Both the position numbers and the translations under genes were made by a program. A stretch of DNA of 64,000 nt from Psammoneis japonica (taxonomy: Eukaryota), in contig QPGO01000008.1 of NCBI GenBank assembly GCA_008632985.1, positions 352,979 to 416,978 of the forward strand, in the 5' to 3' direction. The notes beneath the pieces are model-generated. The model was not told the origin of the DNA. It did not search any database and was given only the letters and a program-made list of their open reading frames with translations. Position 1 is the first letter of the stretch. Every line of letters begins with the position of its first letter. Shown in pieces: positions 1 through 31,342 of this stretch.

Positions 1-940
1 CCTCGTCGACACGAGGGAGTGTCACGGTCAGCGTACGACGTGCAGACGGACAGACTGTACCTCGTAGAGAACAGCTCGTGCTGACTCAGTGGGATGATGT
101 CGAAGACACCTCTGAAGTGACTGACGTGGATAGATCATAGACCGCAGAAGCAGTGAGCCTCTAAAGCTCACAATGTCTTCACAAGACACAGCTCCATTTT
201 CACAGACATGTGCCAGTCTTGCAATTTCTGCAAAATGTCTTTCAACAAACTGCAGCGCCAGTCACTTGACAATGTGCAAGAGGGTTGTGGTGCTGGTCTT
301 CTCACTTGAGCTCCTCAGCTTCAGAAAAAAATGCTGCGCTGCATGATTTGAAGCAAAGTTGATTTGTGATGACACCAACCGTCTCATGGCAACAAGGCAG
401 TTGAAACAGATTGACCCCTTGACATGCTCCAAAGATTCTTGGCTGCATGGCTTTCCCCTTCACTTGTGTGGCTGGGAGTGTGAAAATGGGCACAATGGCT
501 GAGCTCTTGCAGCAGAACAAGGCATGACCTTCTGGGTCTTGGCATGTCAAAAAACAAGATCTGTTGTTGAGAAAGCCAAAAAACAATGCTCAAACATTTG
601 AGTGCTGCTGAGCCAACAGCAGGTTGGGAAACTGAAGAAACAAGAAGAACTTCAGAAAGATTCTTGTCAAGAAAACTTCAGAAAGATTTTTGTCAAGAAG
701 CAGACAAAGTGCAAGTGCTTGATGCAGAAGAAGCCAAGGAGCACTCTGTGGCAGATGACAACAAAACAGGAGAAGAAGAGCCTCTTGGTTTTTGAACTTG
801 GACAGCAGCTGGTCAACATCAAAAGTGCTGTTTGTGGGAACAGGCCATGTGCAATTTTAAAAGCAGGGCAGCACCCAGAAGCAGTCAGCAAAGCATGCAA
901 GTTGCCACAAGAAAATGTTCTACAATGTGCAGCTCAGTGC

Positions 941-1499
941 AGGATCCGAGTGTTGACTCAGCAAATGACCGCTTCGGACTGGATCTCAATTGCAGTGTGC
1001 ATGCAGACAAAAGGTTATTTTGTCACGCCCTTTGTGACATTTGAAGGCTGCAACACGTCGCCGTGATGCATCAACTCTTGTTAGCAGCTGTGTGTTGCAC
1101 AGTTGATCCCAGTCAAGAACCACTGAGAAGTGACAAAACCTTGTGACACTTGGGAGACTCACAGAGCAGAGCATTTGGTGCAAGCTCTGCTCCACACAAG
1201 GGGGGGGTGGGAGAAACCCAAACCCTCCGCAGGGTCCTGCACCAGTGCAGGGGCTCTTCCGGAAATTCAACGGAGCACTGGCACCTCGGGCGTTTTCGAG
1301 AGCCAACCCCCAGTGGCACACCCTTCGGCATTTCGCGACGTTGGGCAGCAACTGGGGAGTGAAGTGAGCACCTCGAATGAAGACACGCCAGACCAAGTTT
1401 TCCCGCACAAAAACCAAAGCCGTCAAAGGTGTTGTGCTGCGTTGCAATCCCAGACCTCGTCTTGTCGACTCCCGAGGCCGAATGAGACGGGTCGAGCTC
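941..1499 (-). repeat. Split direct repeat B2 (contains a 113-bp insertion at 993-1105)
   Basis: Aligns by eye to 1768-2212 from aggatccgag to gggtcgagctc. Confidence 0.95.
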
Positions 1500-1523
1500 T
1501 GGTCCCAGGGTGTGGTGGGTGGG

Positions 1524-1770
1524 TAAAAAGAAGAATGCATTTCCGAGCTTGAGTGATCCAGTCACGATGATCAGGGTTCCTGTTCCAACAAAGCTGGAAA
1601 AGTGAGAGAAAAGAAAACCGAAGTTTGACCGGTCACAGTCAGAAGACCAGACTGAGTCATCTTGAGTCGGAAGTGCCCCACTTCCGTCGCGGATCCAGCG
1701 AGAGGTCATGGTCATCGAGCGAGGTCGGTTTGAGTCAGTCCGTCTCCATCTAAACTTGGGTGCGAGGAGG
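1524..1770 (-). repeat. Split direct repeat A2 (247 bp)
   Basis: Ungapped match to 9984-10230 (taaaaagaagaatgc...gggtgcgaggagg), offset 8460. Confidence 0.95.
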
Positions 1771-2212
1771 ATCCGAGCACTGACTCAGCAAACGACCGCT
1801 TCGGACTGGACCTCAATTGATCCTAGTCAAGAACCACTGAGAAGCAACAAAACCTTGTGACACTTAGGAGACTCACAGAGCAGAGCATTCGGCACAAGCT
1901 CTGCTCCACACAAGGGGGGGTGGGAGAAACCCAAACCCTCCGCAGGGTCCTGCACCAGTGCAGGGGCTCTTCCGGAAATTCAACGGAGCACTGGTGCCTC
2001 GGGCGTTTTCGAGAGCCAACCCCTGGCAGCACACCCTTCGGCATTTCGCGACGTTGGGCAGCGACCAGGGAGCAAAGTGAGCACCTCGAACGAAGACATG
2101 CCAGACCAAGTTTTCCCGCACGAAAACCGAAGCCGTTGAAGGTGTTGTGCTGCGTTGTAATCCCAGACCTTGTCTCATCGACTCCCGAGGCCGAATGAGA
2201 CGGGTCGAGCTC
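1768..2212 (-). repeat. Split direct repeat B1 (445 bp)
   Basis: Match to 941-1499. Confidence 0.95.
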
Positions 2213-2332
2213 CAATCCCCCCCGATGAGAATCCTGGGCAGTGGCCACCAAAAATGTCGATCCGGAGAGCAGGAAGCTGGAAGACTGTTCTCCGGGGACC
2301 CAACGTTGCCAAGGGCTCGCGACCGTCCCGAG

Positions 2333-3991
2333 TCACATGGCCTTAGTGTGACGCAGGAATGATGGCAAAAGAAGGGCAATGTTGGCACAGTGCTGGCGCA
2401 TTTTGTGCGTGGGTCGTGCCGCACCTGATCTTTCCTTCTTCTTCCAATGGTTGACAACGTCAATGTCATCTTCCGACACCTTCTGAGCAATGGCACGCGA
2501 GTCCGAACCCCGTCTGAACGAACGACTCACATCACACTTGTCCTGCACATCAGAGAACGAGGTGATGTCCACTGCGAACAGGCTTGGGTGGTCCTCACAA
2601 ATGTCTCCCAAGACTTCATGCAAGAAAACGTTGAGCTCTTTTGTAGATGAGACCTCTCCCGCCACATTTGATGTCGCTGGTCCACGCGTGCGCCGATGAT
2701 CCCAGTGTAATGAGACCACCGTTTCGACCCAAAAATGAAGGTTGACACCTGAGCTGGTGACATTGACACTGGGGAGGAGGTGCTGCCGCTCCCCATGCTC
2801 TCCCTTGACTCGGCCCAAAAGAGGGACGACAACATAATCCGCATGTCTTGGGAGGTGTCTGACAAGAGCCCCCAAGTCCACAAGTGGGCCTTCGGGACCC
2901 CGAAGAGACAAGATGCAACCAGCCGCAAAGTGCAATCCGCGTGCAAGGCAAATAAATCTCTCCGCCTCTCCTGGGGCTCGGAGGGCCCTCTCCTTGACCC
3001 GAGGCAACAGATGTTGCATGACGTCGACCGACATCGCTCTGTCAGGCCTCCAGTCTTGGCCCATCCGTCTTTTGCATCCGGTCATGAATCGCTGGAACCA
3101 CAGAGAAGCACACGGGTCTTCGCATGTGCGCAGATGCTGTTTGCCTTCCAAATCCCCCAATGCCAAAGCTCGCGAATTAGCCTCCGCCGATGCGCGTGCC
3201 TGGTTGGAGCAAGCAGTGCGCAATTTTCGGATCGTGTCAAACTGAGTGTACAATTCCGAGTGTTTTCCCGCCGCCGTCGAAGCCAAGACGATCTGCACAG
3301 CGACTTCATGTCCACAGTGATCACAGGGCGGGAGAGGACCCGGCTCGAGGTAAGGCCCCGTTAGGCCCAGACGCTCAGACAAGGCTGGGCCCCTCCCAAC
3401 TCTCGACGCGTTTGCTTCGACTGTTGTCGATTCCCTGCTCCAAAACGCGTCCAAAATCACTCTTCGAATGCACGCTAGAGCAACCTCGTCTTGAGGTGAT
3501 GAAGGCAAGGCCTCCCTCTGGTGAAGCTTGTGAAATGCACAGGTGTCACACTCAAAGGCAACCACAAGATGATCCCCTGTGCGAGCCCGTACAAACTTGT
3601 TTTTGTCTTGAGGCTTCCGACACCAAGCATTGTCGTCCAGCCTTGGGCGGTTCCCCCCGAGAGATTGCGCATTGTCGTTTTGAGGGTCGTCCTCCAGAGT
3701 CCCCCCCAGATGGAAAGTCACGCTTTCTCTCGAAGTGTGGCACCCTGGACACCATGCCTTCCGACATGCCGGCCAGATTCCCACACTGTGCACAAAATTT
3801 GCGCAAAACATTCCTTTCGTCCACCGCAGCATCCGGCCACACTCGACGCAGGGACCGCTCCATTGCATGCATTTTTGGGGTTCCCCGAAGCTGCCAAGGG
3901 CTGCAGGAGACAAACGGAAAAAGAAGGCCAGTTGGCAAGGGCTCGAACATGTCACCTTTCCAGAACAACCTTGATCCAGCCGGGACAGCAA
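2333..3991 (-). pseudogene. Tyrosine recombinase of the retroelement; expected catalytic Tyr replaced by Cys
   Basis: Motifs LSLRGPEG, SRSFRRGSDSRA and NHWKK, plus MRQHCAN where the nucleophile Tyr is expected (codon TGT). Overlaps the 3' end of pol in another frame, as is usual for DIRS-order elements. True start uncertain. Confidence 0.85.
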
Positions 3992-6900
3992 ACACTGGGT
4001 CCGCCGCCTTGTGCAACTGTTTCTGCCACTCCGGAGTCATCAAACGCGGGCAGATGAATGCATGGAACGATGTCTGGCGCTTGATCCTTGCGATCCGGAG
4101 CTCTTCTAGGGCCGCTCTCGCCGCGGCTGGAGGTGGGGCCCAGACCCAAGTGCCCGATCTGAAACGGGGCATTTCGACAGCTTTGCAGGCTGGGCAGCTC
4201 CACCCCGCAATGTCGTGACCCTTCTGACACCAATCCAAGGGGGTCAGCAGTTCTGGAGCTGGAGTTCCAGCCCAAGATTGAACCCACGCAAAGAGAGCAG
4301 CCGACCGAGTTGTGGCTCCGAGATGGAGAGGGACAAACGAAAGCATCTTGGCTCCGTTCATGACACCCTTGGTCAAGACTCCCCTAGAAACTCCGTCTGC
4401 ACCCTGAGCTGTCATCCGTCCCCCTGAGACATGCACGAGATGTGGCCCAATCCCACACTCAGCCTCCAAAGTTTTCAAGCGAATGACCTGCTCAAGCAGC
4501 AGAGGGCTGGACGAGGTGCCCTTGCACCAAGCCATTTCAGCAACTGAGTTGTCCGTAAAAAAGAACAAACACGCGCCGGTCAATTCCCCCTGCTCCCCAA
4601 GTTCTTGGATGGCGTCCACCGTGTTGGATGGCTCTTTCCAGTTGGAGGAGTTCCCCAGTTCATCATCGCCCCACACACCGATCCAAAAGACAATGGTTCC
4701 GTCCGCTGCTTCCAGGGAGGTCCCAAGGCCTTTTCCAGATGCATCGCCAAAGCCACAGAGGACAGTGACAATCTTTGAGGACCTGAAGACAACCGCAGAA
4801 GGGGTCGGAGACTCCTTGACGCGGGACACAGCAGTCAAATCCATGAACAAACGTGGGACCGCCGTGACCTGCGGAGGGGGGGGTTGATCCCTTAGACCCT
4901 CAGCAACCTCTGACGGGTCAAGGCCCTGCTTCTCAGCGAGGTGGTGAATCCAGCTTGCGAACTCTTTCGCAGTCATCGCCCAACCATCCTTCTTTCGATT
5001 TGGTCACCAGGAGTCGAGGGTCAAATGGACTCCTTTGAGGAATGGTGTTAGAAAGGGGCAAGTCATTGCAAGGTGGACTAGAAACCCCCTCTTCTGCTCC
5101 AGATCCTCAAAGTCAAATGTGGGAAGGAAGCCCGCCGAATGCCCGGCACAAAAACCTGGCAGTTCTGCGATGACACCCTTGGCTTTGTCCCATTTGGCCT
5201 GGGAAACTGACTGGGTGACATCCCCATCAACAACTCGGAAAATGGTGCCAGCCCAGGCTCCGGTCTCAACCTGCAAGGGGGGGCGCACCTTCCGGGCAGC
5301 ATTCTGCAGTCCAAGACACTGCAACCGCGAGGCCATTTGGTGAGCAACTTGCCAAGCGGATTCCTCACTAGCCCCCATTCCACGCAAGTCATCAACGAAT
5401 GTTTTAATGTCGCCAGCAATTTCCTTGTGATGAGAATTCCACTTCATCACGAATGGTTTCTCCGTCTGGAAGTTGGGATCCCCTGGCAAGTTTAGGAGCA
5501 GCTTGTCGCATCCCATGATGTTGGAGACTCGGTTTGGATCGCCTCTGGCAATCTCATCGGCCCAATAAAATGCCCGCACCACCAAGCAAGGGCTGGGCCG
5601 CATCCCCACAAACAGACGGTTCCAACGCTCGAACCAGAGCGTGCCCGTCGAGGTCGACTCCTGGGATGCAAGATGTGGTTTGAGAGGCATCAAGTCGATC
5701 CCCGCATGTGGTCGAATGTTGGGATCCATGAAGAAGTTTAAAAACATGTCGCCCAGGTCGAGATCCACGGAAAAGGCAGCATGAGTCATGCACCCCAGAA
5801 CCGACGCAGGAGTGGGCAAGAAAAAAGAGGGTGCCCAGAGGGCATCATTTGACCCCGAAGAGGTCCCGTTACAAACCATTCGTACGTCTTCAACGATTTC
5901 CACCAAACGACCATTCTGGGGTTCCACACGGACGGTTTTTGGGACCCAAAAATGGTCGGTTGGACTGACCACCCTCCCACGATGGACCCAAAAATAATCG
6001 GTTGGACCAACCACCCTCCCACGATGGATGTAACCTTGGTCTCGGACCTTTTGCATCTTGTCCACCATCCTAAGAATCTTGTGCTCGGCCTTTGACAAAT
6101 GTCTGGATCCCATCTCGAGCCCCCACCCGCTGTTCCGGAGTGGGCCACTGCCAGAACAAAAGAGAAGAACCTCGGTCCCAACTCCACCAGGAGCTGTCCA
6201 ACACTTGCGCTGATGCCTCAGCCCCAAGGTGTGTGTCTAGAAGCAAGGGTGGGAGTGGAGGGTGGCGGTGAACCCCCCCCTGAAGACGCCCGGTAGCGTC
6301 CCCAAAACGCCGGCATTGTGTCGCCAGCATGGCGACCCAAGTCGGACCACATTCCCGGTGCAGATGGCCTGGAAAGGACTGAAGGGTCCTTCGCCACCAC
6401 CATGGGTGCGCCAAGTCCCAAAGGGCTGGCAAAACCTTGCCAAATCCCGGGAAAAGCAAAGTGATCCTCTCATCCCACAACCGGAAAGGAGGGGCCGCCG
6501 CATCCCCCTTTGCAGCTTTCGCCGTCATGAGGGATGCGTCGATCCAAGTGTGGGGTAAATGGCGCCTGAGAGTCGGTGGCCACGTTCCGGCTGGGTGGAC
6601 CGGGACCCCAACCTCCGTGTTGTCACACACCACGCCCCCAGGTTGTGACGAATCCCGGGGCGTGTGATCAACAAATGCCTCCACAAAAAGTGTGAGGAGA
6701 TTCAACGGAACAAGAGGAAATCCCCGCTCGAAAGCCCGATGCACCTGAGGCATTTGGAAACGCAGGGGAAAATCCCAGGCTGCCAATGTCTCATCCACAG
6801 ACAGTGTGCGGGTGACCCAACCTGTCAGCGACCAATGCGATGGGCACACGACTGGTCAGGTCAAAAACTGTGGGTTGAGATGGTCGCCCTCATTGTAAAA

Positions 6901-7437
6901 TTCCCCACTCGGGTGTTGTGGCGATGGCGACCCAGGTGGCTTGTAGTCGATGATGTGCCCAATGGACCGTCGCAGGCCTCCATCAAAGACCGGTGCAGGA
7001 ACCCCCCGCCAGAACAGTGCAGTCCGAAAGGAAGTGACACCGCCCACCACCGCATGTGCAATGTCCCGCCGCTGCAACTGGTGCAAACCCAGAAGACTGC
7101 GCCGCGAAACCGCTCCCACAGGGATCACAATCAAAGATCCCGACCGCATTGCATGAGCTGCGGACTCAAGGAACGAGGGTGGGCCCGACACGAACACAAC
7201 ATCAACCCGCCTGGCCAGTTGTTCCACACTTGCCCACGAGACCCGTGCCAAGGAGGCGTTCAACTGGTTCTGGAACAGCTCCGCTGATGGAGAACCCCAG
7301 TGGGACCTGGCAATGTCGTCGCAGCAGCAACAAACAGCAGGCCATTCCCTTGGTCTCAAGGACAAGAGCCAGATTGGGGGACCAGAGGCGAGAATCAAGC
7401 AAGCTCCCTGAAAACAGAAGGCTTTTCTGCCCCGCAT
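3552..7437 (-). pseudogene. pol: DNMT-like N-terminus, reverse transcriptase and RNase H; two in-frame TGA stops and one frameshift
   Basis: ORFs 6856-7437 and 6070-6849 share a frame (TGA at 6856-6858). Frameshift near 6100. RT motifs DLDLGDMFLNF, GMRPSP, TFVDDLR. TGA at 5004-5006 is in frame with 3552-4976, which carries RNase H motifs GFGDASGKG, SSNWKE, FTDNSV, ADGVSRG. Confidence 0.88.
5942..6025. repeat. 42-bp in-frame tandem duplication inside RT
   Basis: ggacccaaaaatggtcggttggactgaccaccctcccacgat / ggacccaaaaataatcggttggaccaaccaccctcccacgat. Confidence 0.95.
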
Positions 7438-7509
7438 GATGTGCCTTGGGTTGTTCGGCCTGTCGAACGAGACCTGGTGCTCCCCTGCATCCTCCGTTCC
7501 CCATGAATT

Positions 7510-9567
7510 TCACTTCTTGCTCTCCAGAGCCTCAAGCCGCCGAGTCAGGTCCTTAATCTCCGTTCGCAATTTGCCCAGATCGACGTGCGCCGAGTCGCCT
7601 CGGGCCTGGGCTGACTTCGCCTCTGAGCTGGCGTTCTTGGCTTTCTCTGTTGGTGTCAGTGCCAAAGATTGCAAATCCGTTGCCACCTCGAATCCTGAGT
7701 TTGCAGCCAGGAACTTGACGTGTTCCGACGCCATAGAAGGGTGGTCGGCAAATCCTAGAGACGTGCACTCTGCCACAACATCGTGGGTCTGAAACACCGC
7801 CCACAAAGTCTTGCTGCACACTGCATCTGGGTCCGTCCCGGAAATGGAGGTAAAAACCCCAGAGCACGCCTTGTGGATGTCCTCGAAAATGCGGTGAGTC
7901 AATTTGGCAGTCAAGGACCACGCTTGCTTCTTGGAGAACTTGCTCAGGTCGGTGAGTGATGCACAAGTGGAGTCTATAAACTGAATCAGCGCCCAAAGAA
8001 ATGCCACCAATTTCGACAATGCGTCCCGGACCACCTGACTTTCAAATGTTCCCGGTCTGATGCGTTGGTTGATGTCTTCCATGATGTCGCTCTCTGTCGC
8101 GGTGATCTTCCCCTCAATGAAGTGCTTTGTTCCGACATTCCCCGAAGACCAGTGTTCGTGGGTCTCGATTTTATCCAAGCAAGAGGGGTGCAAACCCAAG
8201 GTCTGAGACGATTTTGCAGATCCTGAGTCGAAGATCCGAGGCATGCGACATTGGAAGCCCGCCAGAGTTCGCGTGTCTTCCTCGGTGGCGATGTTTGTGC
8301 TCATTTGCTTGGCCCACTGAGACAAAAAGTGATGCAGAGCGGTGGGCTCGATCCCCTTAATCCGGTCCAAGAGCAAGACGACATCAGCCAAGCACCCGCG
8401 TGCCCTCAAGGGGAAATGCTGTGTCATCCAAGCTTGACACTCCTCGCAGGTTGATGCGCCAACCCCCGAGAACTTGATGGCAGACTTGTCTGACTTTGCA
8501 CGCAACTCACTCACAGCGCGGTCTGGGCGTGTGAGGCATGCTTCCACGGACCCTTGATCGAATGAAGCGCCGGGAGGTGCAAACCCCGAACCAAACTGGG
8601 ACTTGATCGACCTGACCTTTGAGGTGAGCTGCGCACAAACACGAAGCATGTCATTCTTCATGTTTTCCAGATCCGCGCGGCTGGCCGTCGATCCCATCCG
8701 ATCTTGCACGTGTTGGAACTTCTCATTGAAAGTTCTCACCAGATTGTTGGATTGGTTTCGCCAACCCGTCTCCACTTGTGTGACACACTCGACCAGGTCC
8801 AGAGATTGGGTTCCGGTTTCCCGGGATGAAACGTTCGCCAGCGTGCCCCAAAGAGCAGGGGCGAGTGGCGCCTCATCAAACCCCTGGGTCGGTTCCCCGA
8901 GAGACGCGTCGAGTTGATCCAGCTTCCGGCTTAGAATCTCAATCACAGACTCCACAGCGTGGAATCGCCTGCCAGCTTTGTCGCCAAAGTCGGCCAGTGC
9001 TTCCCCGGCTTGCCTCAACCCATCCTCGGTCAATTGGACCACACGGGCCAACGCGGACGGACTTTCATTTGCCGCCAGGAACTGCGCCGGGGTGGGGAGC
9101 ATTTGTTTCTCGTGCGGCGTGAACCTCTCCAGAACGGCATCCTCTTGAAGGGTTGACGGTTCCGGCCACTGCTTCCGAGCCGGTGTCTTGAACTCGGCCG
9201 CCCTTTCATGCTCCCTCAGAGTGGGTTCGACCTCGTCCTTGGTGGAAAAGGGCTCACCATTGCCCAGAACCAAGAATTTTTGCCGCCAACCGGCCAGTGC
9301 ATCCGACTCGGCTTCCCACTTGACCAACACTCCACCAGACATGTTTTCGCCATTTAAGATGGGTTGGCAAAAACCCGTGTCCGGGGACTTGAGGATTGCT
9401 GCCACACCCAACGCCAGAACACTCATCTTGCTGCCCTCATGCCTCACATTGCACTTGCTTGCCTTCTTGAGACAGAAGGTGGCTCCTCCACCCTTGATCC
9501 CCAAGCACCGAGGTGCCCCAATGGCCTCCAGCCAGGTGATTCGATGACGAGGCACATGCGAGGACAA
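7510..9567 (-). CDS. ORF1 (gag-like) of the YR retrotransposon, 685 aa
   Basis: Long ORF directly upstream of pol inside the split repeats; Cys/His N-terminal cluster and C-terminal coiled coil (LRTEIKDLTRRLEALE). Confidence 0.75.
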   Translation of the reverse strand: MSSHVPRHRITWLEAIGAPRCLGIKGGGATFCLKKASKCNVRHEGSKMSVLALGVAAILKSPDTGFCQPILNGENMSGGVLVKWEAESDALAGWRQKFLVLGNGEPFSTKDEVEPTLREHERAAEFKTPARKQWPEPSTLQEDAVLERFTPHEKQMLPTPAQFLAANESPSALARVVQLTEDGLRQAGEALADFGDKAGRRFHAVESVIEILSRKLDQLDASLGEPTQGFDEAPLAPALWGTLANVSSRETGTQSLDLVECVTQVETGWRNQSNNLVRTFNEKFQHVQDRMGSTASRADLENMKNDMLRVCAQLTSKVRSIKSQFGSGFAPPGASFDQGSVEACLTRPDRAVSELRAKSDKSAIKFSGVGASTCEECQAWMTQHFPLRARGCLADVVLLLDRIKGIEPTALHHFLSQWAKQMSTNIATEEDTRTLAGFQCRMPRIFDSGSAKSSQTLGLHPSCLDKIETHEHWSSGNVGTKHFIEGKITATESDIMEDINQRIRPGTFESQVVRDALSKLVAFLWALIQFIDSTCASLTDLSKFSKKQAWSLTAKLTHRIFEDIHKACSGVFTSISGTDPDAVCSKTLWAVFQTHDVVAECTSLGFADHPSMASEHVKFLAANSGFEVATDLQSLALTPTEKAKNASSEAKSAQARGDSAHVDLGKLRTEIKDLTRRLEALESKK

Positions 9568-9983
9568 AGAAGACGCACCTTCCCTCTCCGACTCGACCGT
9601 GCCTCCGATGTCACCCGCTAAATCCCGCCCAAAGAAACCAACCCGAGACTAGTGGGTTTCCCTCTGAACCGGGCGGGATGCGTCTCCTTCCAAAAAAATG
9701 GTTCCTGGAGGGTGGGAAATGACTTCCCCTGGCTCCGCTCTGTCAATGTCCGACTGGGGATGACCACAACCCCCCGAAATGTCATCGCTTGTGCCTCGAG
9801 GATTTAAGCCCTCGTGACCCCCCCCTGACATGCAGCCCCAGAAGGGCGAGCCGGAGGAGAGGGAGCCGCCGGAGAGCTCGACAAGAAAGGCGAGACAACA
9901 TCCAACTCCAGTTGACGAGCCAAATCAACGAACGCATCATCCGAGATACCCGAGGCAAAGAAATCCAACATGACAAGGGAGAC

Positions 9984-10230
9984 TAAAAAGAAGAATGCTT
10001 TTCCGAGCTTGAGTGATCCAGTCACGATGATCAGGGTTCCTGTTCCAACAAAGCTGGAAAAGTGAGAGAAAAGAAAACCGAAGTTTGGCCGGTCACAGTC
10101 AGAAGACTAGACCGAGTCATCTTGAGTCGGAAGTGCCCCACTTCCGTCGCGGATCCAGCGAGAGGTCACAGTCATTGAGCGAGGTTGGTTTGAGTCAGTC
10201 CGTCTCCATCTAAACTTGGGTGCGAGGAGG
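9984..10230 (-). repeat. Split direct repeat A1 (5' terminus of the element)
   Basis: Match to 1524-1770. Confidence 0.95.
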
Positions 10231-11479
10231 TTGTCAACAACTGGTGGCTGTTGTCCAGCCAGACTCCCAAAGAAAGGCTCAGAAACACTTCTTGTGCATT
10301 TTTCTCCCTTGCAAGGGTTGCACTGCAGACAACATCAATGTGTCCACCAGCTGTGGTGCAGCTGGCAATCATCAACTTGTGTTTGCAGCTCAAATGAAGG
10401 GTTTTTGCAACACAGGTTTCCTCCAAAAACTGTCACAGCTTTGAAGCATCGCCATCTGCACAGAGAGAAGTGATTTGCAACAAGCCCAGAAGTTGTGTTG
10501 TTGAAGATTTGATGGGCACAAAGCTGTTGCTTTGCTGTTTTTCACACAACCACTGCGTTGTTGTTTGTGTCGGTTGGATGTTTGACTCTGGACACCACAA
10601 TGTGTTCCCTGTGAAAAGTTTGGCATGTTAGAGAGCTGATGTTTGGGTGACACACAAGATGAAGTGTCTTGCATGATGGACAATCTGTCTCAAAAGGCTG
10701 TGTTTGTTTTCAAGCTTTATTTTTCAAAGTTGGTTGGAAGGATTTGAAAATGTAAAACATGCAACTTGTGAGCTGGCAGCACACTGACACATTTGGTTTG
10801 CACACAACTGTCTGGCACCAGCCCCACTTGCTCTGTCAAAGTCAGGTCCCAAACAATGTGCTTCATCATTGCTTTCTTCTTTGTCTTCCAATTCCATCAG
10901 CTGGTCATTGTGTGCTTTGTTGCCTGGAAAGTCTTTCACACAACCAGTGGCTTTGACCAAATGCTTTGTGCAAGTCTCTTGCTTGTGACACACTCTTTCT
11001 TTAATCTTGCAGCTGGCCTCTTCAAAGCAGGCTTCACATTGCTGCCACAACTGCCAAGCACCTTGTCAGGATTTTGCAGCATTTTTAGATGCTCATCTGC
11101 TGCAAAGCTGTGCTTGCACAAGGCGACATTCTTTCCAAGAACAACCATGAGTGCCAACTCCAGTTTTGGTTCTTCCACACCAACAACTTCAACAGCAAAG
11201 GAGCACAAGCTGGTCTTTGAGAAACACTCCAGCAGGTGTTCACATTCTTGCAGGGCACCTGTGAGTTTTGAGCTTGGTGCCTTTCTGTGCTTCTGGATTG
11301 AGAGATCAGCTGGGACAGTCAGCAGCACCCATGTCAAGTGCCTTGTGCTTTGAAGAAAATTGAGTGTTTTCTTTTGTTGTCGTTGGGGCATGGTTGCTGG
11401 CACTTGGCATGCCCCAGTCTGCTGCTCAAGAGTGCTGGTGCAAAGCAAGGTGAGCACTTCTTACACTTGCCCAGGAGAA

Positions 11480-12600
11480 AGAAATGCACCCAATGTGGGA
11501 TTTCTTGATTTGCTGCATTGGAGCAAATGGCAGTGAGGCCACAGCATCTTTTGGATGTTGGCAAAGAGTGCTGCCACAGCAGCAGCAACTCTGTCTTCAG
11601 CAACAGCCTCAAGCCAGAATTTCTGCACTTTTTACTGACACAAATGTTGGTGCTGAAACCCACTTGATGGCACTTGCAAGAAATCCACACTGGTGCAAAC
11701 ACAACACAGCTGCACATGCTGTGCTGGCTGTTGTTCATTTTCTGGTGCTGTGCCGGAGTCACAGACCAAAACAAGGTGTCCCCAACCCTTGTTTGTGCAT
11801 TTGGCATTTTCACAAACTCTAAAGCATTGGCTTCAACTGGGCCACAATGTGTCATTGTGCAACTCTTGCTGTGCAGCCACTTGCCCACTCAACTTTTTTC
11901 CACCTGCATCCAGTGTGGCAAAGATGGAGAGCAGGGGGCAACAACACCACACTGTTGCAATGATGTTTTGCCTCAGCAGCTTGCACGCACACTGTTGTGC
12001 TCCCAAGAATCAGAGAATTTGAGGTGACTTCATGCTGTCATCTTCATCTGCAAGCAGCAATGACAGTGCAAATGAAGCCATGCCAACAATGGATTTCTTC
12101 CTCCCAAAGCAAGCAGGAGAAAAGAGCCCAAGTGTGGTTGGCATTGAGACAGACAGACAAGCCGGCAAAAAAATCAGAGCCAGTCAGTCCTGCTGCCTGT
12201 GACATGCTGTCAACGAGTTGTTGCATTGAGTGCTTGTGATGTGTGTGGCTTTCTTTTCAACTCTGGCAACAAAAAACATGCAACTGCATTTGAAAGAGTG
12301 CCAGAAGCAAGAGTGCAGTTCTTTGCAGCATGGAAGACAACCACAGTGGGTTGGACAGACATGGACACTTGGTGCCGCTAGACTCTGCACTTTGGCTCAC
12401 ACCATTGGCTTGAGCACCGCATGGTCCTGGCAGTGTGCAGGGCAATGGGTGAAACAGGTGGATGAGCTTGAGGACCTGGTTGCCTTGCACAAAGATGTGT
12501 TGTTTCACCTTGCAATTCTCACAGGCTGCATGGCACTGCACTCCCTTTGCCTGTGCATCATTTTGGCATGAACATCTGAGCCTTTGTCAGCTTTTTTCAG
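11480..12600 (+). pseudogene. Heavily decayed transposase relic, possibly Plavaka (CACTA-like) family
   Basis: Frame-broken fragments QARISALFTDTNV, EIHTG and LLFIFW..GVTDQNK..TLVCAFGIFTNSKA recall Plavaka motifs (recognised from memory only). Limits approximate. Confidence 0.35.
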
Positions 12601-12739
12601 ATGCTGCTGACTTTGGATGGAATTTCTTTTTTGCTCAGACAGGAAGAACACATCAGCGGCAGGCTGCCTCTGGTGCAGAACATCTCTTCACCAAACACAG
12701 CAATTTTCTCATTTGGGAAATCTGTGCTGAGAGTTGAGC

Positions 12740-13910
12740 AAACATTGGCTGTCTCATTGAGAGAAATGATTTTGACAGATTGTCACACTGCCACAGGTGC
12801 CCAGCTTGCAAGGGAAATGAAAAATGCAGAGACAACAGCAGCACTGGGTTGGGCAAACAAAAGCTCATGCCCTGTGAGCAGCGCATCAATGCCACACCAC
12901 CTTTGCAGGTTTTCTTGACCCACTGACAACTGCTGGAAGGCAAGGCATGCTGCAAAGCTTGACATCATGGCACTGCAATGACAGGCACATTTTGAGGTTT
13001 GTGGAAGACATTTTCAAAGAGAAGCCCAGAAGCATGCAGAAAGCAGTGTTCTGGAGCTTGGTGATGCAAAAAAAAGCAGCAAATGAGTCTCCTTCAGGGA
13101 CCACAATTTTGCCTGTTGCAGCTTCCAGGGAGTGTGTGCACTGAAGATGTTGCAACTTGCTTCAAAAACAGGTGCAAAGCAATTGCAGGCATCACAGCAG
13201 TGGTTCCACACATTTCCTGATTTTTCAACATCACCATGCATCACCTCTTGACATTTCATTGAGAATCAACCAACCGTGGCTCCAAAGCATGTGGCGCTGG
13301 GATGGAAATCTAGCAAATGTGCTCTGGGAATGTTGACCATCTTGTCATGGCAAATGATTTGACACATTGTTGTGCTGCCATGGGTGGCCAGCTTTCCAGG
13401 AAAACAAAACTTGTGAAAATGATGTGGATGCCAGTGGGGTGGGAAATGAAAGCTCACACCCTGCATGCAAGCAACATGTCCATGCACAGTTTCTTGCAGG
13501 TTTTCTTGACCTGCTGACAACAGCTTGAAGGCTGGACATGCTGTGGAGCTTGGCAGTGTGATGCTGCCACAACAAACACCTTTTGGCTTTTGCAGAAGTT
13601 GTCTCTAAAGTTCAAAGAAGCATGTGAAAGCAACATCCTGGTGTGCTCAGTGTCGTGGGGAAATTGGCAAATGAATCTCCTTGAAAAAACCCATGGCTTT
13701 GCCCACTGCAGTTTCTGGTTTGTGCACAGAACATGTTGCATCTCATTCCAAGAACATTCAAGGCCATTGCAGGTGCCATTGCCTGCCCCTGCATGTTCTG
13801 ATTTTTCCACATTGCCAGGTGGCACTGCTTGACGTTTCATTGAGAGTTGCCCGACCATGGCTTCAAAATGTGATGGAACAGAAATCTGACTCATGTGCTC
13901 TGGGAACACA
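12740..13910. repeat. Diverged tandem duplication, period ~590 bp
   Basis: Anchor caggttttcttgacc..ctgacaac at ~12906 and ~13497; tttttc.aca and gtgctctgggaa also recur at a similar offset. Confidence 0.65.
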
Positions 13911-14179
13911 TCTCCGTGCTGCCACAGAAAGCAAGGATGCCATGGGCTCCAGCCTCTTTGCTCTGGCTTTGCTTTTTTTTGGCTCTTTCAGAGACCACCA
14001 AAAATGGCAACTGCCATCTCAGATGAAGTGACATGGCAAAAGATCAACTCCACCCTCAACACCATTTGCCACACCCTCTGACATCTGGAACAGCACATGG
14101 CAAACCCTTTGAATGAATCTTGATTGACTTGCACACATGTTCTTCCAGCACAATCCAAAGAGATGAAAGACATTGAAGG

Positions 14180-15200
14180 TTGCAGAGCTGAGCAGAAGAC
14201 CACCCAGAGAATCACAAAGCTGCTGTGGTGAGCAATGAAACATTGAAGAATGTGACTTCTAAAGCCTCCACTCTGTTCTCACCTGCAAGATCCCTTGCCA
14301 AAAAGATTGGAAAGGTTGCTGGATGAAATTGTTGCATGAGCGCAGTGTGCAAAAGCTTTGATTTGGGCACCCAACTGAAAGACCTGACAAGAGGGGAGCA
14401 AAAGGAAAACTCTCAACTTGCAAGAAATCCAAAAACTGGAGGGTTGCACTTCCGTGATGCAGCTGCATTGGGTTTGAGGATGAAGAACTGTCAAAAAACA
14501 GAAACAAGAGACCACCCCAAATCACACAGTTGCTGCAGTGAGACGAAAGACATGAAAGGTCACAGAGCTGAGAAACAGACACAGAAGACCACCCAGGATC
14601 ATAAAGTTGCTGTGGTGCACAATTGGATGTTGCAGAGTGTGACTTCCAAAGCCTCCATTTTGTTCTCACCCATGAGATCCCCAGCTAAAAAGATTGGAGA
14701 GGTTGCTGGGTGAAATTGTTGCATGAGGAAGGCATGCAGAAGCTTTCAATTTGGGCACCCAACTGAACGACCTGACAAGAGGGGAGCAAAAGGGAAACTC
14801 TTGACTTGCAAGAAATCCAAAAACTGAAAGGTTGCACTCCCTTGATGCAGCTGTGTTGGGTTTGACGATGAAGAGCTGTCAAGAAACAGACACAGGAAAC
14901 CACCCTGAATGATCACACAGTTGCTGCAGCAAGCAATGAAATGTTGAAGAGCATGCAATGGCCTTCAAGGCCTCTGCACTGTTCTTGCCTGTAAGATCCC
15001 TGGCCAAAAAGATCAGTGGGACAGTTGAGTGAAATTTTTGCATGAGAGTGGTGCGTGGAAGCTTTCAATCAGGGTGTCTGACTGGACAACCCAACAAGAG
15101 GGGAGCAAAAGGGAACTCTTGACATGCAAAAAACCCAAAACAAAATGACTGGACTCCCGTGATGCAGCTGCAGTGGGATCAAGGATGAAAAGAGTGCTTC
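14180..15200. repeat. Three diverged ~320-390 bp units
   Basis: Anchor caagaggggagcaaaagg at ~14388, ~14777 and ~15095, with shared flanking blocks. Confidence 0.8.
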
Positions 15201-15504
15201 TTGTGTGGACAGTTGCAGAAAAAGCACAGCACTTGACAGAGCAGATGGACTCCTCCAGTCCATGGGATGTTGCTGGGTGCCAAGAACACACCACAGAAAA
15301 TGAGGCACATCACTTGGCCAAGGCCAAAAGGCAAATTGACAGGACCTCACTGGGTGGTCAACTCAGGACAGCTGATGGGCTGATTGAAGACACTGCAGAA
15401 GGCTCCTGAAAAAGCACATCCCTTGGCTTTGCGGACAATCAAGGCAGTGGGCATTGCCAGGTGTCAATTGCAGGACATCTGATCAGCTTGTCAATGGTGC
15501 CACA

Positions 15505-16350
15505 GAGCTCAAGGTGCAGCCAATGAAAAGGGATTGCAAAAAATGCTGTGTCCAAGTGTGGACATTCCCTTGGCTCTCTCTGTGGAAGTGGCTGATGTCA
15601 GTGATGGAGTTGGATCGGATTCGGATTTGGCGCAGCAGTCGCAGGACTTGGACTTGCACTCAGTGCAGCAGCAGGAAAGGTGGAGCAGGTGGGCCAAGCT
15701 GATTTGGAAATGAGGAGCAGGGAATGGTGTTGGGTTGCTTGTGTGGCAGGATTGGGCTTGGTGCAATGTCGTCAGATCCAACCAATGAACCCTCATCAAT
15801 CACAAGGGTTGCTGTGTGGTGCAAGAGAGCTCAAGGTGCAGCCAACGAAAAGGGATTGCTAAAAAATGCTACGTCCAAGTGCGGACATTCCCTTGGCTCT
15901 CTTTGTCCCAAGCAGAACTGGCCAATGTCAGTGATGGAGTTGGATCGGATTCGGATTCAGCGCAACAGTGGGAGCACTTTGATTCGGACTTGGCGCAGTG
16001 GTGCAAGAGGCAGAGCAGGTGGGCCAATGGCCGATTCGAAATTGGTGAGCAGGGGATGGTGTCGGATTGACTGTGCGGCAGGATCGGGCTTGGCACGCTG
16101 TCGTCATGTCCAACCAATGAACCCTCATCAAATTGAGGGTTGCTGTGTGGGACAAGAGAGCTCAAGGTGCAGCCAACGAAAAGGGATTGCTAAAAAAATG
16201 CTACGTCCAAGTGTGGACATTCCCTTGGCTCTCTCTGTCCCAAGCAGAAGTGATCGGATTCGGATTCGGTGTAGTAGTGGGAGGACTTGGATTCGGACTC
16301 AGTACAATAGTGCGAGAGGCGGAGCAGGTGGGCCAAGCCGATTCGGAATT
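15505..16350. repeat. Three tandem ~325-bp units (last one partial) at the edge of the TpA-depleted domain
   Basis: Anchor gagctcaaggtgcagccaa at ~15505, ~15827 and ~16158. Confidence 0.9.
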
Positions 16351-16549
16351 GATGTAGGATAAAGTGTAGATACTTTTTTGGGCCCCAGGGTTGACGGAGC
16401 CATTGGATCGGGGTAGTTTTAGGCGACGGGGTCCCTTTCAAACTTTGACAACGACAACAAGAGCAAAACACGCGTCAGTCTTTACCAAAAACTTCCCTTT
16501 TTTATACTCACAAATTTGGAATTTACGTACATCGATCGAGTGTGCAGTT

Positions 16550-16870
16550 ATTGGCTACAACGGAGCTGCATTTGGACTAGAGCTCGGCGCTGGGCTGCTA
16601 CTTGGAGTCGTACTGGGCGTGTCACTCGAGCAGGACTACGACTCGGTTGTCGTGTCGTGTCGTGTGAGTCTGTACATCATTCTGAGCGGGACTCGCTCTC
16701 GGTGGATGGAAAGGCATTGGCGTTAGAGCACTGTGCTCCAAGCTGGGAGCAGGGCTTGTACTCGGTGTTCTGTTTGGAGCTTCACTCGGAGCAGGACAGC
16801 TTGATGGATTGTCCATTGTCGACAACTACAATCGCACGGATATCGCCGCCTATCATTGTGTTGGCGAAGT
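16550..16870 (-). pseudogene. Fragment encoding Pro/Ser-rich PSxxPS repeats typical of diatom secreted proteins
   Basis: PSEAPNRTPSTSPAPS and DTPSTTPSSSPAPSSSP lie in different frames; no clean gene model. Confidence 0.3.
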
Positions 16871-18333
16871 TCTGAGCAGTTTCAGTTTTGGTTCTTGAAA
16901 ACTGGCTCGCTCGCCGAAAAAAGAGAAACAGCGATGCGCTGCGAAACTTATTCAGCACTGTATGTACAGAAGAGAACATAGCACAGGATCACTGATGAAA
17001 TAATATATATAGATGTTTAAATGTAAATTTACTTTTCGTATCTATCATATTTAATGAAATATAAATTATTTTGCTCTAGAATATATACATAAGTATTAGT
17101 TTTCAAAGAGCCCGCTGTCTCGGATCTGGAAGCCCGGAAGCCACTCGATTTCGAAGCTCTCAAATAGAAAATGGCTGGCTGCTGGCTGGGTCGCCTGTCG
17201 CCTGCCTCCATGTCGCCTGTCGCCAACCGCCGACGATGGTGACCTTGAGCAAGTAATCGTTTGCTCCAAACCTTCATTAGCTTTCGTACACCCACTGCAC
17301 TTTGTTTCGCGTGCTATGTGGAATTCAGCCTCACGCTCTTGAATCAAAATTTTTGCCTTTTCGTTTCTATTCCCACAATGATATGATGTTGCCGGGCTGG
17401 CAATGGCAACTAGCGTGCAAAAATAATGACCCTCGTCGTGCCGACAGCCGACAGTATATTGTGACAACGACCATCAAATTGGTGCTTATGTCTAGTCTGG
17501 TCTGCTCCATGGGCAATGCGGTGCTGTAGATGGCTAGAGTTGTCGTGGTGAATTCGTCTTGGACGCTTGAACTCACAATATTTCCGTGGCGGACGTTGCA
17601 ACGAGACTACACATTGTCTATCCACCATGTTTCGTGAAGGGTTATCAAGACCAGGGTGGAGACTGGAGTTCATCGTTGTGTTTGTGGAAATAAGAATGCC
17701 AAGTTGGTTCTTTTGCTGTCAGTTGTCGTGAGGACGGTGAGGAGGAACAGAGCGTTGAAAGACGTGGGACGTGGCCAGTCACTTGACCTTTGCCGATTCC
17801 ATTTACATTTGTTCTCAGCCGGCCATACTAAGGAGGCTAACACAAACAGAGCGAAGGTACGAATGATATTATTGAACAAGGGGGGAGATAGATTTCAACC
17901 AAAGCAAGTGGTTTGCTGTTCTGGGTGTTCGCTTGTTGTTTCGTAAGGTTTTCACTCGTACGCAGCTATGCTCACAAACTGTACTTATAGCTCAAATCTT
18001 TTCTCGTTTCAGAATAGATACTTTCCCAAAAATAATGGCGCTCTACTTACACGCATTCAATTTTGCACGCAACGCCTTCTCGTGATGTCATTTTTGTGAT
18101 CTAAATTGGCTATTTTGTGGTGCCCGCTTTTAGCTACGGTACCGTACAGTGGTTTGCTCAACTACGACGTCCGACCAGCAAAAAGATGGCGCTGCTTTGC
18201 TCCTCCTGTTGCTCTAGATTCTTCTCTAGCTAGAGCTAGCTAGTCAAAATACCGGTATAATTTATACTTTCCAATTTATTTTCTTGTGTAGTGAAAACGG
18301 TGTCGTTGCAATAGTCGTAGGATTCGAACACAT

Positions 18334-22214: not shown

Positions 22215-22987
22215 ATTCAATTCGAACCGCTTCCAGCAGCTGCACAAGAGTTGGATAAGAAAACGAAGCTTGCATGTGAGAGGGAGACTTGATAGGGAGA
22301 AGTGCGAATGAACACAACAGTGATACAAAGCAATTGTTACCTTTTTCAAGCAGGCCAACGGTTTTTCGCGGCGATTTGGATTTGGAAAGCCGACGTTTCA
22401 AACGACGTCCTTTGATTTTGTTGCTTGACAAAGAGCTTCTCCCAACGTTGCTACAAGCAAGGCACGAGACGTGAGATAATGAATAAGGATACAAGACGCA
22501 AGGAAAACAAGAAGGGAAGGCGAAAGAGCAACACTCACCGATTGCAGGCAAGTCAACAACGATAACAACAAAGAACGCTATGAGACTTGATGTCAATGTT
22601 TGATGTTCAGTGCTGTGACTTCGAACTCTAGTTCGCGTGTTGAGTCGTCGTTGCAAATATCAAGTAAACGTACATTTGTCTGATGACGTCAGGGGTGACG
22701 TAGAAGGCATAAATAAGGCCGGCTATTCAGCAGTTCCTCTCAGCCAGATAGAAGAAGAAGAGAAAAGGAAAAGGAAGGAAAAAACATTGATGGTTTGAAA
22801 GGGTGCACTGCAGCACCGCAGTGCGCACAGTAATGAAGACGGACGCAGACAGGTGCAGATGCGCTGCGTGGAATTTGGTGCGAAGTTTCATGCGTTTGCG
22901 TGCGCAGAAGGATGTGGAGCGCCAATGGCTGGAATGAAGCAGCACACCACACAGCAGTCAGTGCAGCTCTGTCATCACGGCGCTAGA

Positions 22988-24484: not shown

Positions 24485-24580
24485 CAGCACAGTGTGTTGG
24501 TGTTTTTCAGCGAAACTGTGGCATTAGTTGAAAAGGCATAGCCCCAGTTGTGGTTCGAAAAATGGGAACGAGGAAGAACA

Positions 24581-31308: not shown

Positions 31309-31311
<3 letters not shown>

Positions 31312-31339
<28 letters not shown>
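31312..31339. repeat. (AG)14 microsatellite inside a CTAG/TAGAG-rich tract
   Basis: Direct reading. Confidence 0.95.

Positions 31340-31342
<3 letters not shown>

Follow-up and report, generated by a model that had tools for sequence, protein, structure and literature searches.

Sharply bounded TpA-poor blocks in the diatom Psammoneis japonica point to in-place A:T to G:C hypermutation of silent mobile and repeat DNA

Introduction

We analyzed a 64,000-nucleotide stretch of the diatom Psammoneis japonica (contig QPGO01000008.1 of GenBank assembly GCA_008632985.1, positions 352,979 to 416,978 of the forward strand; hereafter the window, with coordinates counted from its first letter), in which a tyrosine-recombinase (YR) retrotransposon at 941-10230, the sequences on both of its sides and two further blocks have lost nearly all of their TpA dinucleotides. 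We consider it likely that this loss is the product of a TpA-specific hypermutation from A:T to G:C, acting in place on silent mobile or repeat DNA, by which TpA becomes TpG or CpA. To our knowledge, the classical mutational defenses, namely repeat-induced point mutation (RIP), APOBEC and the decay of 5-methylcytosine (5mC), all convert C to T. An A:T to G:C defense acting at TpA was first reported in 2026, for viral inserts of one rhizarian alga; new here is a saturated footprint in a diatom. An earlier note, made from the letters of the window alone, had described the loss as a RIP-like process of reversed polarity, and the polarity is indeed opposite to that of RIP and 5mC decay: TpA is destroyed and GC is raised.

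TpA loss is confined to sharply bounded blocks

The observed/expected ratio (o/e) of each dinucleotide was computed per 1-kb segment across the whole window. Between 165 and 16300 (16,136 nt) only 79 TpA are left, compared with a mean of 906 (standard deviation 24, minimum 847) in 200 mononucleotide shuffles, and the TpA o/e amounts to 0.01-0.19 in 16 of the 16 segments of 1-16000. The loss recurs at about 22.8-30.25 kb (0.02-0.29 across 23001-30000) and 43.8-46.25 kb (0.07-0.10 across 44001-46000), just as the earlier note had stated, and our counts agree with its spot counts of 4 TA in 11041-12000 and of 3 in 8101-9060; all remaining segments lie at 0.33-0.96. When five blocks are pooled, 143 TA remain of the approximately 894 that would be expected at the o/e of 0.61 found in the gene-bearing parts of the window. 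The depleted DNA comprises the following stretches:

165-940, no strand: TpA- and CpG-poor left flank (GC 0.452; o/e of TA 0.04, CpG 0.08, TG 1.87, CA 1.72)
941-10230, minus strand: YR retrotransposon with split direct repeats (o/e of TA 0.13, CpG 0.74; GC 0.562)
10231-16300, no strand: TpA- and CpG-poor right flank with degenerate tandem repeats (o/e of TA 0.05, CpG 0.14)
22800-27000, no strand: block 2, CpG-retaining part (o/e of TA 0.20, CpG 0.90; GC 0.554)
27001-30250, no strand: block 2, TpA- and CpG-poor continuation (o/e of TA 0.05, CpG 0.24, TG 1.87, CA 1.72)
43800-46250, no strand: block 3 with a 152-nt tandem duplication at 44114-44405 (o/e of TA 0.10, CpG 0.80)

The loss is restricted to TpA: AA and TT show no depletion (o/e 1.09-1.34 in the blocks, 1.11-1.14 in host DNA), and AT, at 0.71-0.86 compared with 0.90 in host DNA, is counted by us as not depleted, in agreement with the earlier remark that AA and AT runs persist. 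TG and CA are elevated instead (o/e 1.2-1.9), and their counts on the plus strand are close to equality in every block (778/870, 690/655, 351/344, 365/350 and 219/216), so that the change is strand-symmetric. The edges of the blocks are sharp and resolve to less than 100 bp: On the left of block 1, the final ordinary TA stands at 162 and the next one at 858, and on its right, ordinary TA density resumes at approximately 16270-16300. Block 2 begins between 22749 and 22831 and ends at about 30200, and block 3 begins between 43742 and 43832 and ends at about 46250. The longest TA-free gap of the window spans 27088-28211, and the host genes between the blocks have an ordinary TA o/e of 0.38-0.96.

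The loss extends to the stop codons TAA and TAG, which occur about twice per kb in the blocks, compared with 7-11 times per kb elsewhere. Consequently, the long open reading frames (ORFs) of TpA-poor blocks are partly an artefact. Dead DNA within these blocks carries ORFs of 200-700 amino acids in several frames and on both strands, and 58 ORFs of at least 100 amino acids lie in 1-16400.

Repeat copies record a change in place, on both strands and once per site

The YR retrotransposon provides an internal record of the direction of change, for its terminal sequences are present as repeat pairs. The account of split direct repeats in PMC4157794 gives the layout A1-ORFs-B1-A2-B2, in which the paired repeats are identical copies in this class of elements. 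On the minus strand of the window, the same layout is found as A1 (10230-9984), ORFs, B1 (2212-1768), A2 (1770-1524) and B2 (1499-941):

9984-10230, minus strand: terminal repeat A1, which duplicates 1524-1770 (247 nt, 96.8% identical)
941-2212, minus strand: split repeats downstream of the recombinase (B1 at 1814-2212 and 1768-1819; A2 at 1524-1770; B2 at 1100-1499 and 941-992)

The two parts of the B pair are 92.5% (1100-1499 and 1814-2212) and 90.4% (941-992 and 1768-1819) identical. Overall, the repeat pairs of the element differ at 42 of 699 aligned columns. Twenty-two of these differences fall into 11 doublets in which TG in one copy faces CA in the other (TG-CA doublets), 4 are TA facing TG or CA, 11 are CG facing TG or CA, and 5 lie elsewhere. 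CpG decay alone would predict 0.44 such doublets, as estimated from 34 CG-CG and 11 CG-TG or CG-CA pairs, compared with the 11 observed. In the B pair, all 29 of 29 mismatches are transitions, and 9 TG-CA doublets stand against 0.32 expected from CpG decay; in the A pair, 6 of the 8 mismatches are located at pyrimidine-purine dinucleotides (3 CG-TG, 1 TA-CA and 1 TG-CA doublet). This excess over CpG decay indicates that the doublets mark ancestral TAs, each copy having resolved its TA independently, and the TG-versus-CA differences within the pairs of a single element imply a change in place that affected both strands.

The same pattern is seen beyond the element. Across all 10 repeat pairs in the window, TG-CA is the commonest double difference, with 70 cases compared with 10 for the class that follows it, and transitions outnumber transversions (335 versus 122). 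The degenerate tandem repeats of the right flank (12764-13906, 14160-15192 and 15495-16354) are likewise dominated by TG-CA doublets, with 8, 14, 26 and 9 per pair. A CG facing a TA occurs only once and CpG is not elevated; it follows that each site was struck once and then no longer offered a target. Three pairs, with small numbers, yield mutated fractions per copy of 0.86 for TpA, 0.14 for CpG and 0.006 for other sites, which places the TpA rate, as an equally rough repeat-pair estimate, at about 13 times that of CpG and about 300 times the background. A local, small-scale instance of this signature is a 42-nt tandem repeat at 5942-6028, whose two copies differ by TGG versus TAA, by a TG versus CA doublet and by one G/A difference outside TpA.

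Tyrosine codons are selectively lost from the proteins of the element

Tyrosine is the sole amino acid whose codons start with TA, and we therefore compared the proteins encoded by the element with those of its relatives. The coding part consists of four ORFs:

7510-9648, minus strand: first ORF, 712 amino acids in gag position, no family (translation without Pfam match)
5004-6236, minus strand: putative reverse-transcriptase part of pol (P0245), ending at an in-frame TGA (2215 relatives with E ≤ 1e-3, of which the closest are 49-50% identical)
3552-5003, minus strand: RNase H-like part of pol and downstream region (P0246; GFGDASG and FxFTDNS conserved in 23-30 of 30 relatives)
2333-4036, minus strand: tyrosine recombinase ORF (P0003) with tyrosine to histidine or cysteine changes (274 relatives with identities of up to 53%, several of them from Fragilaria crotonensis)

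P0246 is in the same reading frame as P0245, and the 30 pol relatives of at least 1100 amino acids that we aligned with MAFFT are polyproteins of 1100-1400 amino acids sharing the xVDD, GFGDASG and FTDNS blocks. We take the TYVDDL/xVDD block to be the reverse-transcriptase motif and the GFGDASG and FTDNS blocks to be RNase H motifs. In the former, P0245 reads TFVDDL in place of TYVDDL (tyrosine in 18 of 30 relatives, both aspartates in 29-30 of 30). The first ORF has tblastx homology in the loci of some relatives at 7504-8002 and 9212-9474, and in tblastx the element as a whole is homologous over 2289-9474 to 80 loci of its family from metagenomes. The assignment of P0003 as a tyrosine recombinase is suggested by a weak but consistent structural match: The AlphaFold model (pLDDT, the predicted local confidence, of 74 from a 27-sequence alignment) has lambda Int, Cre, XerH, Flp and Tn1549 Int as its leading Foldseek matches, with a best E of 5.8e-3, none at or below 1e-3, and probabilities of up to 0.99-1.00.

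In the recombinase, we regarded a column as conserved for tyrosine if at least 70% of the relatives have tyrosine there. None of seven such residues is kept (6 read histidine and 1 cysteine), compared with 171 of 202 other conserved columns (Fisher p=4e-6), and each of 26 relatives retains 5-7 of them. The lost residues include the near-invariant C-terminal tyrosine of an RYT motif, presumably the catalytic one, and judging from these substitutions the encoded recombinase was probably inactivated. In pol, 1 tyrosine is kept and 4 are changed (3 to cysteine, 1 to phenylalanine), compared with 208 of 243 other columns kept; at a looser threshold of 55%, there is no tyrosine at any of 10 occupied columns (6 histidine or cysteine, 4 phenylalanine). 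Pooled over both proteins, 1 of 12 tyrosines is kept and 10 have become histidine or cysteine, and 379 of 445 other conserved columns are kept (Fisher p=1.7e-8). An unrelated gene relic in block 2 (P0004, described below) behaves alike, as its three all-tyrosine columns read H, C and C. Across the three proteins, tyrosine was replaced 7 times by histidine (T to C on the coding strand) and 6 times by cysteine (A to G), and tyrosine contents of 0.34% and 0.70% here compare with 2.48% and 2.88% in relatives. A/T codons outside TA are mostly kept, at 80-86% (F 20/25, N 12/14, K 15/18).

The earlier note had listed seven peptide motifs at which the transposon proteins seemed to carry the products of TA to TG or CA changes. 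Tyrosine to cysteine or histidine and leucine to proline replacements are indeed real, and all seven motifs lie in minus-strand ORFs; six occupy majority tyrosine or leucine positions, and DWCQKG falls on a majority phenylalanine. The refuting condition that it had named, a family already free of TpA, does not hold: All 80 of the 80 metagenome loci have a TA o/e of 0.36-0.78 and a TG plus CA o/e of 0.95-1.31, compared with a TA o/e of 0.12-0.13 for the element here, and the relatives keep their tyrosines.

A few metagenome relatives are themselves poor in tyrosine. One of 120 recombinase relatives, P0104, has cysteine or histidine at 4 of 6 conserved tyrosine columns, and relative to an 88%-identical neighbor it shows 3 tyrosine to cysteine and 3 tyrosine to histidine changes with none in reverse (12 tyrosines versus 6). 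Among 150 pol relatives, P0375 has 3 histidines or cysteines at 8 tyrosine-majority columns, and P0379 (506 amino acids) contains no tyrosine at all and has phenylalanine at 6 of the 8. The use of phenylalanine in P0379 could reflect tolerance of TpA loss rather than damage, and the tyrosine-poor relatives as a group hint, at the level of their sequences, at the same process in other diatom populations.

The YR family seems to be centered on diatoms, the named matches being Fragilaria. Pfam returned no match for the proteins of the retrotransposon, nor did it find reverse transcriptase, RNase H or integrase in five intact relatives (P0005, P0006, P0247, P0252 and P0254). Because the family is invisible to Pfam, standard annotation will label its genes as 'hypothetical'.

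A slower CpG decay divides the blocks into two classes

The depleted DNA falls into two classes, which the earlier note had not recognized. Class 1 (941-10230, 22.8-27 kb and 43.8-46.25 kb) is poor in TpA and roughly retains CpG, with a GC content of 0.53-0.56 and a CpG o/e of 0.7-0.9; class 2 (165-940, 10231-16250 and 27-30.2 kb) is poor in both, with a GC content of 0.45-0.48, a CpG o/e of 0.08-0.24 and TG and CA o/e of 1.7-1.9 each. Host DNA has a GC content of 0.48 and a TpA o/e of 0.61. A second, slower process in the same blocks, likewise absent from that note, is ordinary decay of CpG to TpG or CpA. Diatom transposons are CpG-methylated, and the decay presumably stems from 5mC deamination in methylated repeats. 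Since TpA is lost faster than CpG, two classes of blocks arise, TpA disappearing first and CpG later: Young insertions lack TpA alone, whereas in old relics CpG has become scarce as well. Both flanks of 941-10230 carry the class 2 signature, which makes the retrotransposon a class 1 element nested in an older class 2 block.

Surviving TAs have a skewed sequence context

The 143 residual TAs are not a random sample of their kind. Those with a purine (R) before and a pyrimidine (Y) behind, R-TA-Y, make up 5.6%, whereas their share is 29% for host DNA and 25% for relatives, and Y-TA-R makes up 48%, compared with 17% and 24%, respectively (chi-square p of 1e-16 to 1e-20 for the flank skew). ATAT and GTAT are absent among them, and ATAC occurs once. 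On one reading, the process works best on a TA with a pyrimidine behind it, whichever the strand, and R-TA-Y is accordingly the most thoroughly cleared.

Sequencing data reproduce the TpA-free sequence and reveal related copies

Public DNA run X1 contains 45% of the words sampled from 2300-10300; two companion runs derive from the same sample, and no RNA run is listed. We placed contigs assembled from this run (Logan) on 1-20000 at a likeness of at least 80%. Of the 1,863 contigs placed, 354 match at 99% or more, 500 at 95-99%, 575 at 90-95% and 434 at under 90%. The summed contig depth, which is not a copy number, is greater over 0.7-10.7 kb than over 10.7-20 kb; together with the placements, this indicates that related copies of the element exist. 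Among the copies in the run, 1366 transitions face 502 transversions. Over 10.7-16 kb, the summed depth equals that of neighboring genes, and this part is not detectably multi-copy in this one run at a likeness of at least 80%. The earlier description of the process as repeat-restricted therefore holds in part: The affected DNA forms discrete transposon and repeat blocks beside untouched genes, and 10.7-16 kb contains tandem repeats, but the latter stretch is not detectably multi-copy at this likeness. In the right flank, contigs match TA-free, single-copy sequence at 10573-11233 (661 nt) and 11382-12312 (931 nt) with 2 differences each, which lends read support to the bases.

One contig of the run joins 940 to 10228 and skips 9,287 nt; its short side has 27 letters and was flagged as unreliable. 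The junction coincides with the interval that we had defined independently from the repeats and hence looks like an empty site. It could stem from an allele or strain lacking the insertion, from a paralogous site lacking it as well, or from its precise excision. A separate feature of the depth profile is a peak at 668-1334, where the summed depth reaches 25,786, compared with 165-750 elsewhere on 1-20000; a very abundant repeat includes a short piece of the element's terminal repeats here, or an insert among them near 993-1099.

Proposed process and points that weigh against it

We propose that transposon, repeat or relic DNA of the diatom would arrive in the chromosome and then undergo a DNA-level, strand-symmetric hypermutation of TpA to TpG or CpA. 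Each strike would destroy its own target, and the process would run to the near-exhaustion of TpA and then stop. It would thereby eliminate the codons for tyrosine, together with TAA and TAG among the three stop codons, and spare the neighboring genes, and the slower decay of CpG to TpG or CpA would follow in the same blocks. The data show the direction of the change, its restriction to TpA, its strand symmetry, its sharp confinement to blocks, its occurrence in place and its speed relative to CpG and other sites. Beyond this, we infer a targeted defense whose target would be silent or foreign chromatin, not homology between sequences. As to its chemistry, our leading though tentative candidate is an ADAT/TadA-like enzyme that would deaminate the adenine of TpA in DNA; thymine oxidation may be an alternative, for which the TET/JBP-like relic described below is a lead rather than evidence.

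Several points weigh against this interpretation as a whole. The data present a footprint in which no de novo mutation was observed, and they identify neither an enzyme nor a targeting signal. The repeat-pair argument presumes that the repeats were identical at insertion. Moreover, among the 40 best-supported copy differences (of 1,871) in run X1, 14 have TG or CA in the window where the other copies have CG, that is, private CpG decay, and the same 40 hold only 3 TG-CA doublets and 2 cases of CA in the window with TA in the others. Part of the TpA loss could also date back to a source copy that was itself mutated before the insertion. None of the 80 loci of relatives is hypermutated, in a search that favors intact copies. 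The surplus of Y-TA-R among the residual TAs could instead consist of newly created TAs, and run X1 perhaps comes from the assembly's own sample and is then maybe not independent. Finally, only 941-10230 is identified as a transposon: The stretches 10.2-16.3, 22.8-30.25 and 43.8-46.25 kb contain no recognizable mobile-element gene, and their nature as transposon or foreign DNA can therefore only be inferred.

Alternative explanations

The alternative that survives best, although we regard it as improbable, is editing before integration, in which the RNA or cDNA of the retrotransposon was edited by an ADAR-like A-to-I activity or another deaminase and the copy arrived already mutated. The best-characterized block is indeed a retroelement, sharp edges would coincide with the ends of such an element, and ADAR-type enzymes prefer a 5' U according to the discussion in 10.64898/2026.01.13.699255. 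Editing of a sense RNA, however, gives A to G on one strand, whereas tyrosine has gone to histidine 7 times and to cysteine 6 times and TG about equals CA. In addition, the repeat pairs of one and the same copy differ at exactly these sites, with 11 doublets compared with 0.44 predicted, and the flanks at 165-940 and 10231-16300, which do not belong to the element, are together with their tandem repeats even more depleted than the element itself. The contexts preferred by ADAR, TAG and TAA, are moreover the survivors.

Still less probable is a general AT to GC bias in repeats, either through GC-biased gene conversion or through WA to WG repair (W, A or T) of the pol-eta type. The GC content of the young blocks (0.53-0.56 compared with 0.48 in host DNA) and the predominance of transitions both in the copies of run X1 and in the window's repeat pairs agree with it. 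A WA hotspot, by contrast, should erode AA as well, whereas neither AA, TT nor AT is depleted; for the same reason, the pol-eta candidate of the earlier note fits poorly, and the TAA/TGG pair at 5952/5994 that it had cited in support is real but a single case. Likewise, A/T codons outside TA are kept at about 80-86%, compared with 1 of 12 tyrosines, and the old blocks have the lowest TpA at a host-like GC content of 0.45-0.48.

We consider it very improbable that the loss reflects native composition or selection, in the sense that the family or the host's repeats avoid TA because of UpA-directed RNA cleavage, codon usage or nuclease avoidance. TpA is mildly low everywhere (o/e of 0.61 in the host and 0.36-0.78 in relatives), and the pol relative P0379 manages without tyrosine by having phenylalanine at most tyrosine-majority columns; against this stand the replacement of conserved tyrosines including the near-invariant C-terminal one, the in-frame stop of pol, the fact that 0 of 80 loci come near an o/e of 0.12, and non-coding tandem repeats that are equally affected. 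Least probable of all is that assembly or polishing rewrote TA in repeats, where polishing errors do concentrate and for which run X1, as perhaps the assembly's own data, would be a lenient witness, because separately assembled Logan contigs reproduce the TA-free sequence in single-copy stretches, the consequences at the protein level are coherent, the boundaries are sharp at the element ends, and the same signature was measured experimentally in the part of 10.64898/2026.01.13.699255 that concerns Bigelowiella natans.

Comparison with known systems

In-place hypermutation at TpA has one close precedent. The earlier note knew of no described system with this signature; our literature searches found no diatom report of the TpA to TpG/CpA signature and a single paper with it, namely that of Mettrop et al. 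(bioRxiv 10.64898/2026.01.13.699255, 2026), which, for viral DNA integrated in the chlorarachniophyte B. natans, measured just this change of TpA to TpG or CpA. In mutation-accumulation lines, 230 of 231 mutations in integrated nucleocytoplasmic large DNA virus (NCLDV) and virophage sequences were A to G or T to C, these all at TpA, at a rate of approximately 6e-7 per site per generation, about 1000 times the baseline and in some lines only (10.64898/2026.01.13.699255, as stated there). The same text reports 124 TpA-poor, CpA- and TpG-rich clusters in the genome, with low-TpA coding sequences enriched for reverse-transcriptase and DDE domains, and its authors propose an ADAT2-like DNA adenine deaminase.

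The features described there, that is, A to G and T to C at TpA only, TpG or CpA on either strand, and discrete regions in an otherwise ordinary genome, recur in the window as a footprint rather than as observed events: TpA-only A:T to G:C change, both outcomes and discrete regions. A non-host origin is shown among our blocks for 941-10230 only. The two cases differ in host, which is a rhizarian there and a stramenopile diatom, of another supergroup, here, and in target, namely giant-virus and virophage inserts there and a YR retrotransposon with tandem-repeat relics here. They also differ in degree: The B. natans account gives a Rho of 0.45 for the NCLDV region, compared with near saturation here (o/e 0.04-0.2), and a measured rate of about 1000 times the background, compared with our rough 300-fold estimate from repeat pairs. 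Superimposed CpG decay further sets the window apart from the alga, and a flank preference is apparent here, R-TA-Y being cleared and Y-TA-R left.

Fungal RIP shares with the process proposed here the sharp-edged hypermutation of repeated or mobile DNA by dinucleotide-specific transitions on both strands, which inactivates transposon coding sequences. It differs in that it converts C:G to T:A, mostly CpA to TpA, and thereby creates TpA and lowers GC, whereas here TpA is destroyed and GC is raised. RIP itself was rejected as the cause, for a TpA depletion to an o/e of 0.04-0.2 at raised or unchanged GC is the opposite of its product; RIP furthermore depends on duplication, whereas 10.7-16 kb is, in one run, not detectably multi-copy. 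The decay of 5mC at CpG likewise yields TpG and CpA and is active in these blocks, but it is unable to remove TpA or to turn tyrosine codons into those for histidine or cysteine, and it is about 13 times slower here. We accordingly rejected it as the sole cause, given the unexplained TpA loss and the excess of doublets, and regard it as a co-occurring process.

Editing by ADAR and APOBEC resembles the proposed process in that deaminases drive transitions against selfish or foreign nucleic acid, and ADAR prefers U before the edited A. Fungal TAD2/TAD3, which edit mRNA from A to I, also prefer U in this position. The substrates of these enzymes, however, are RNA or single-stranded cDNA, and their changes mark one strand only, whereas both strands of chromosomal DNA are affected here, and the 3' G preference of ADAR contrasts with the pyrimidine after TA in our case. 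N6-methyladenine was considered as a trigger and dropped: The account in PMC12695648 places it at ApT and in permissive chromatin, which is both the wrong dinucleotide and the wrong chromatin.

As for the element, it corresponds to Ngaro/PAT-type YR retrotransposons of the DIRS order in having an ORF in gag position, a putative reverse transcriptase/RNase H and a recombinase on one strand within A1-ORFs-B1-A2-B2, and it differs from them in that its proteins, even those of intact relatives, are too divergent for any Pfam model.

Host genes and content of the other blocks

The ordinary parts of the window contain intron-poor genes, namely eRF1, a CAD-type carbamoyl-phosphate synthase, E2F/DP, LMF1, a P450 and a lipase, and the closest named eRF1 proteins are those of the diatoms Ditylum (91%), Odontella (89%) and Phaeodactylum (87%). 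No match to a deaminase family was obtained among 28 large ORFs of the window. Downstream of eRF1 (minus strand), a TA-rich CTCTAG/AG microsatellite cluster at 31227-31370 falls within the kilobase that has the highest TpA content anywhere in the window (83 TA); its presence in host DNA indicates that TA-rich simple repeats of the host escape attack.

The identity of the remaining depleted DNA is less clear. For 101 ORFs of at least 100 amino acids in the depleted blocks, Pfam gave only 7 weak matches (E 0.011-0.086), all below the curated cut-offs. A tblastx search of 10.3-16.4, 22.7-30.3 and 43.7-47.3 kb against the 80 loci of relatives gave no match, so none of these blocks is a copy of the YR element. 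A check of blocks 2 and 3 for terminal repeats revealed only short weak repeats, none of them at a block end. Near the end of block 3, a 488-amino-acid ORF without family at 45803-47269 (minus strand) may be either part of this block or a low-complexity host gene, and 46001-48000 has a strong purine skew (GC skew 0.28, AT skew 0.24) at an intermediate TpA o/e, which is 0.33 in 46001-47000.

Block 2 contains one further recognizable gene relic:

24690-26204, minus strand: diatom-specific gene relic P0004 with an H-x-D ... H pattern (3 relatives, among them an 'unknown protein' of Seminavis robusta)

H404, D406 and H460 are invariant in the copy of the window and its three relatives. In an atlas feature search, 22 of 30 matches fell into a set carrying Tet_JBP (score 0.93), a family present on 16% of the members of the listed cluster. 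Pfam found nothing for P0004 or its three relatives, a sequence search of the PDB found nothing for P0004 or P0003 even at E up to 10, and the structure model of P0004, built from a 4-sequence alignment, is unusable at a pLDDT of 32. To judge from its residue pattern, the relic may be a candidate TET/JBP-like dioxygenase, and its position inside a hypermutated block makes it probably a passenger of a mobile element.

Implications

For annotation, the footprint calls for caution: Dead elements without TAA and TAG keep long false ORFs, for which gene callers are likely to predict tyrosine-poor and cysteine- and histidine-rich proteins. The same properties make a genomic screen available, based on TpA-poor, CpA- and TpG-rich blocks, tyrosine-free open frames and TG-CA doublets between repeat copies. 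Given its occurrence in an unrelated alga, a TpA-erasing process may be widespread. It is conceivable, if rather doubtful at present, that TpA hypermutation is an old defense across the lineages of stramenopiles, alveolates and Rhizaria (SAR), perhaps beyond, which quickly inactivates transposons and integrated viruses, with TpA loss in the diatom outrunning 5mC decay about 10-fold. If so, it may already have hit an insertion that another read set, with its empty-site sequence, does not contain, and the flank preference, by which TA before a pyrimidine is cleared and TAA and TAG survive, would point to a TadA/ADAT-like adenine deaminase acting on chromosomal DNA.

On our main reading, in-place TpA hypermutation is present in a second, ecologically dominant lineage, and its targets include transposons besides viruses. 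Since genetic tools and culture collections exist for diatoms, they are suited to finding the enzyme and the targeting signal, and the question of both becomes directly testable in clonally grown, transformable organisms.

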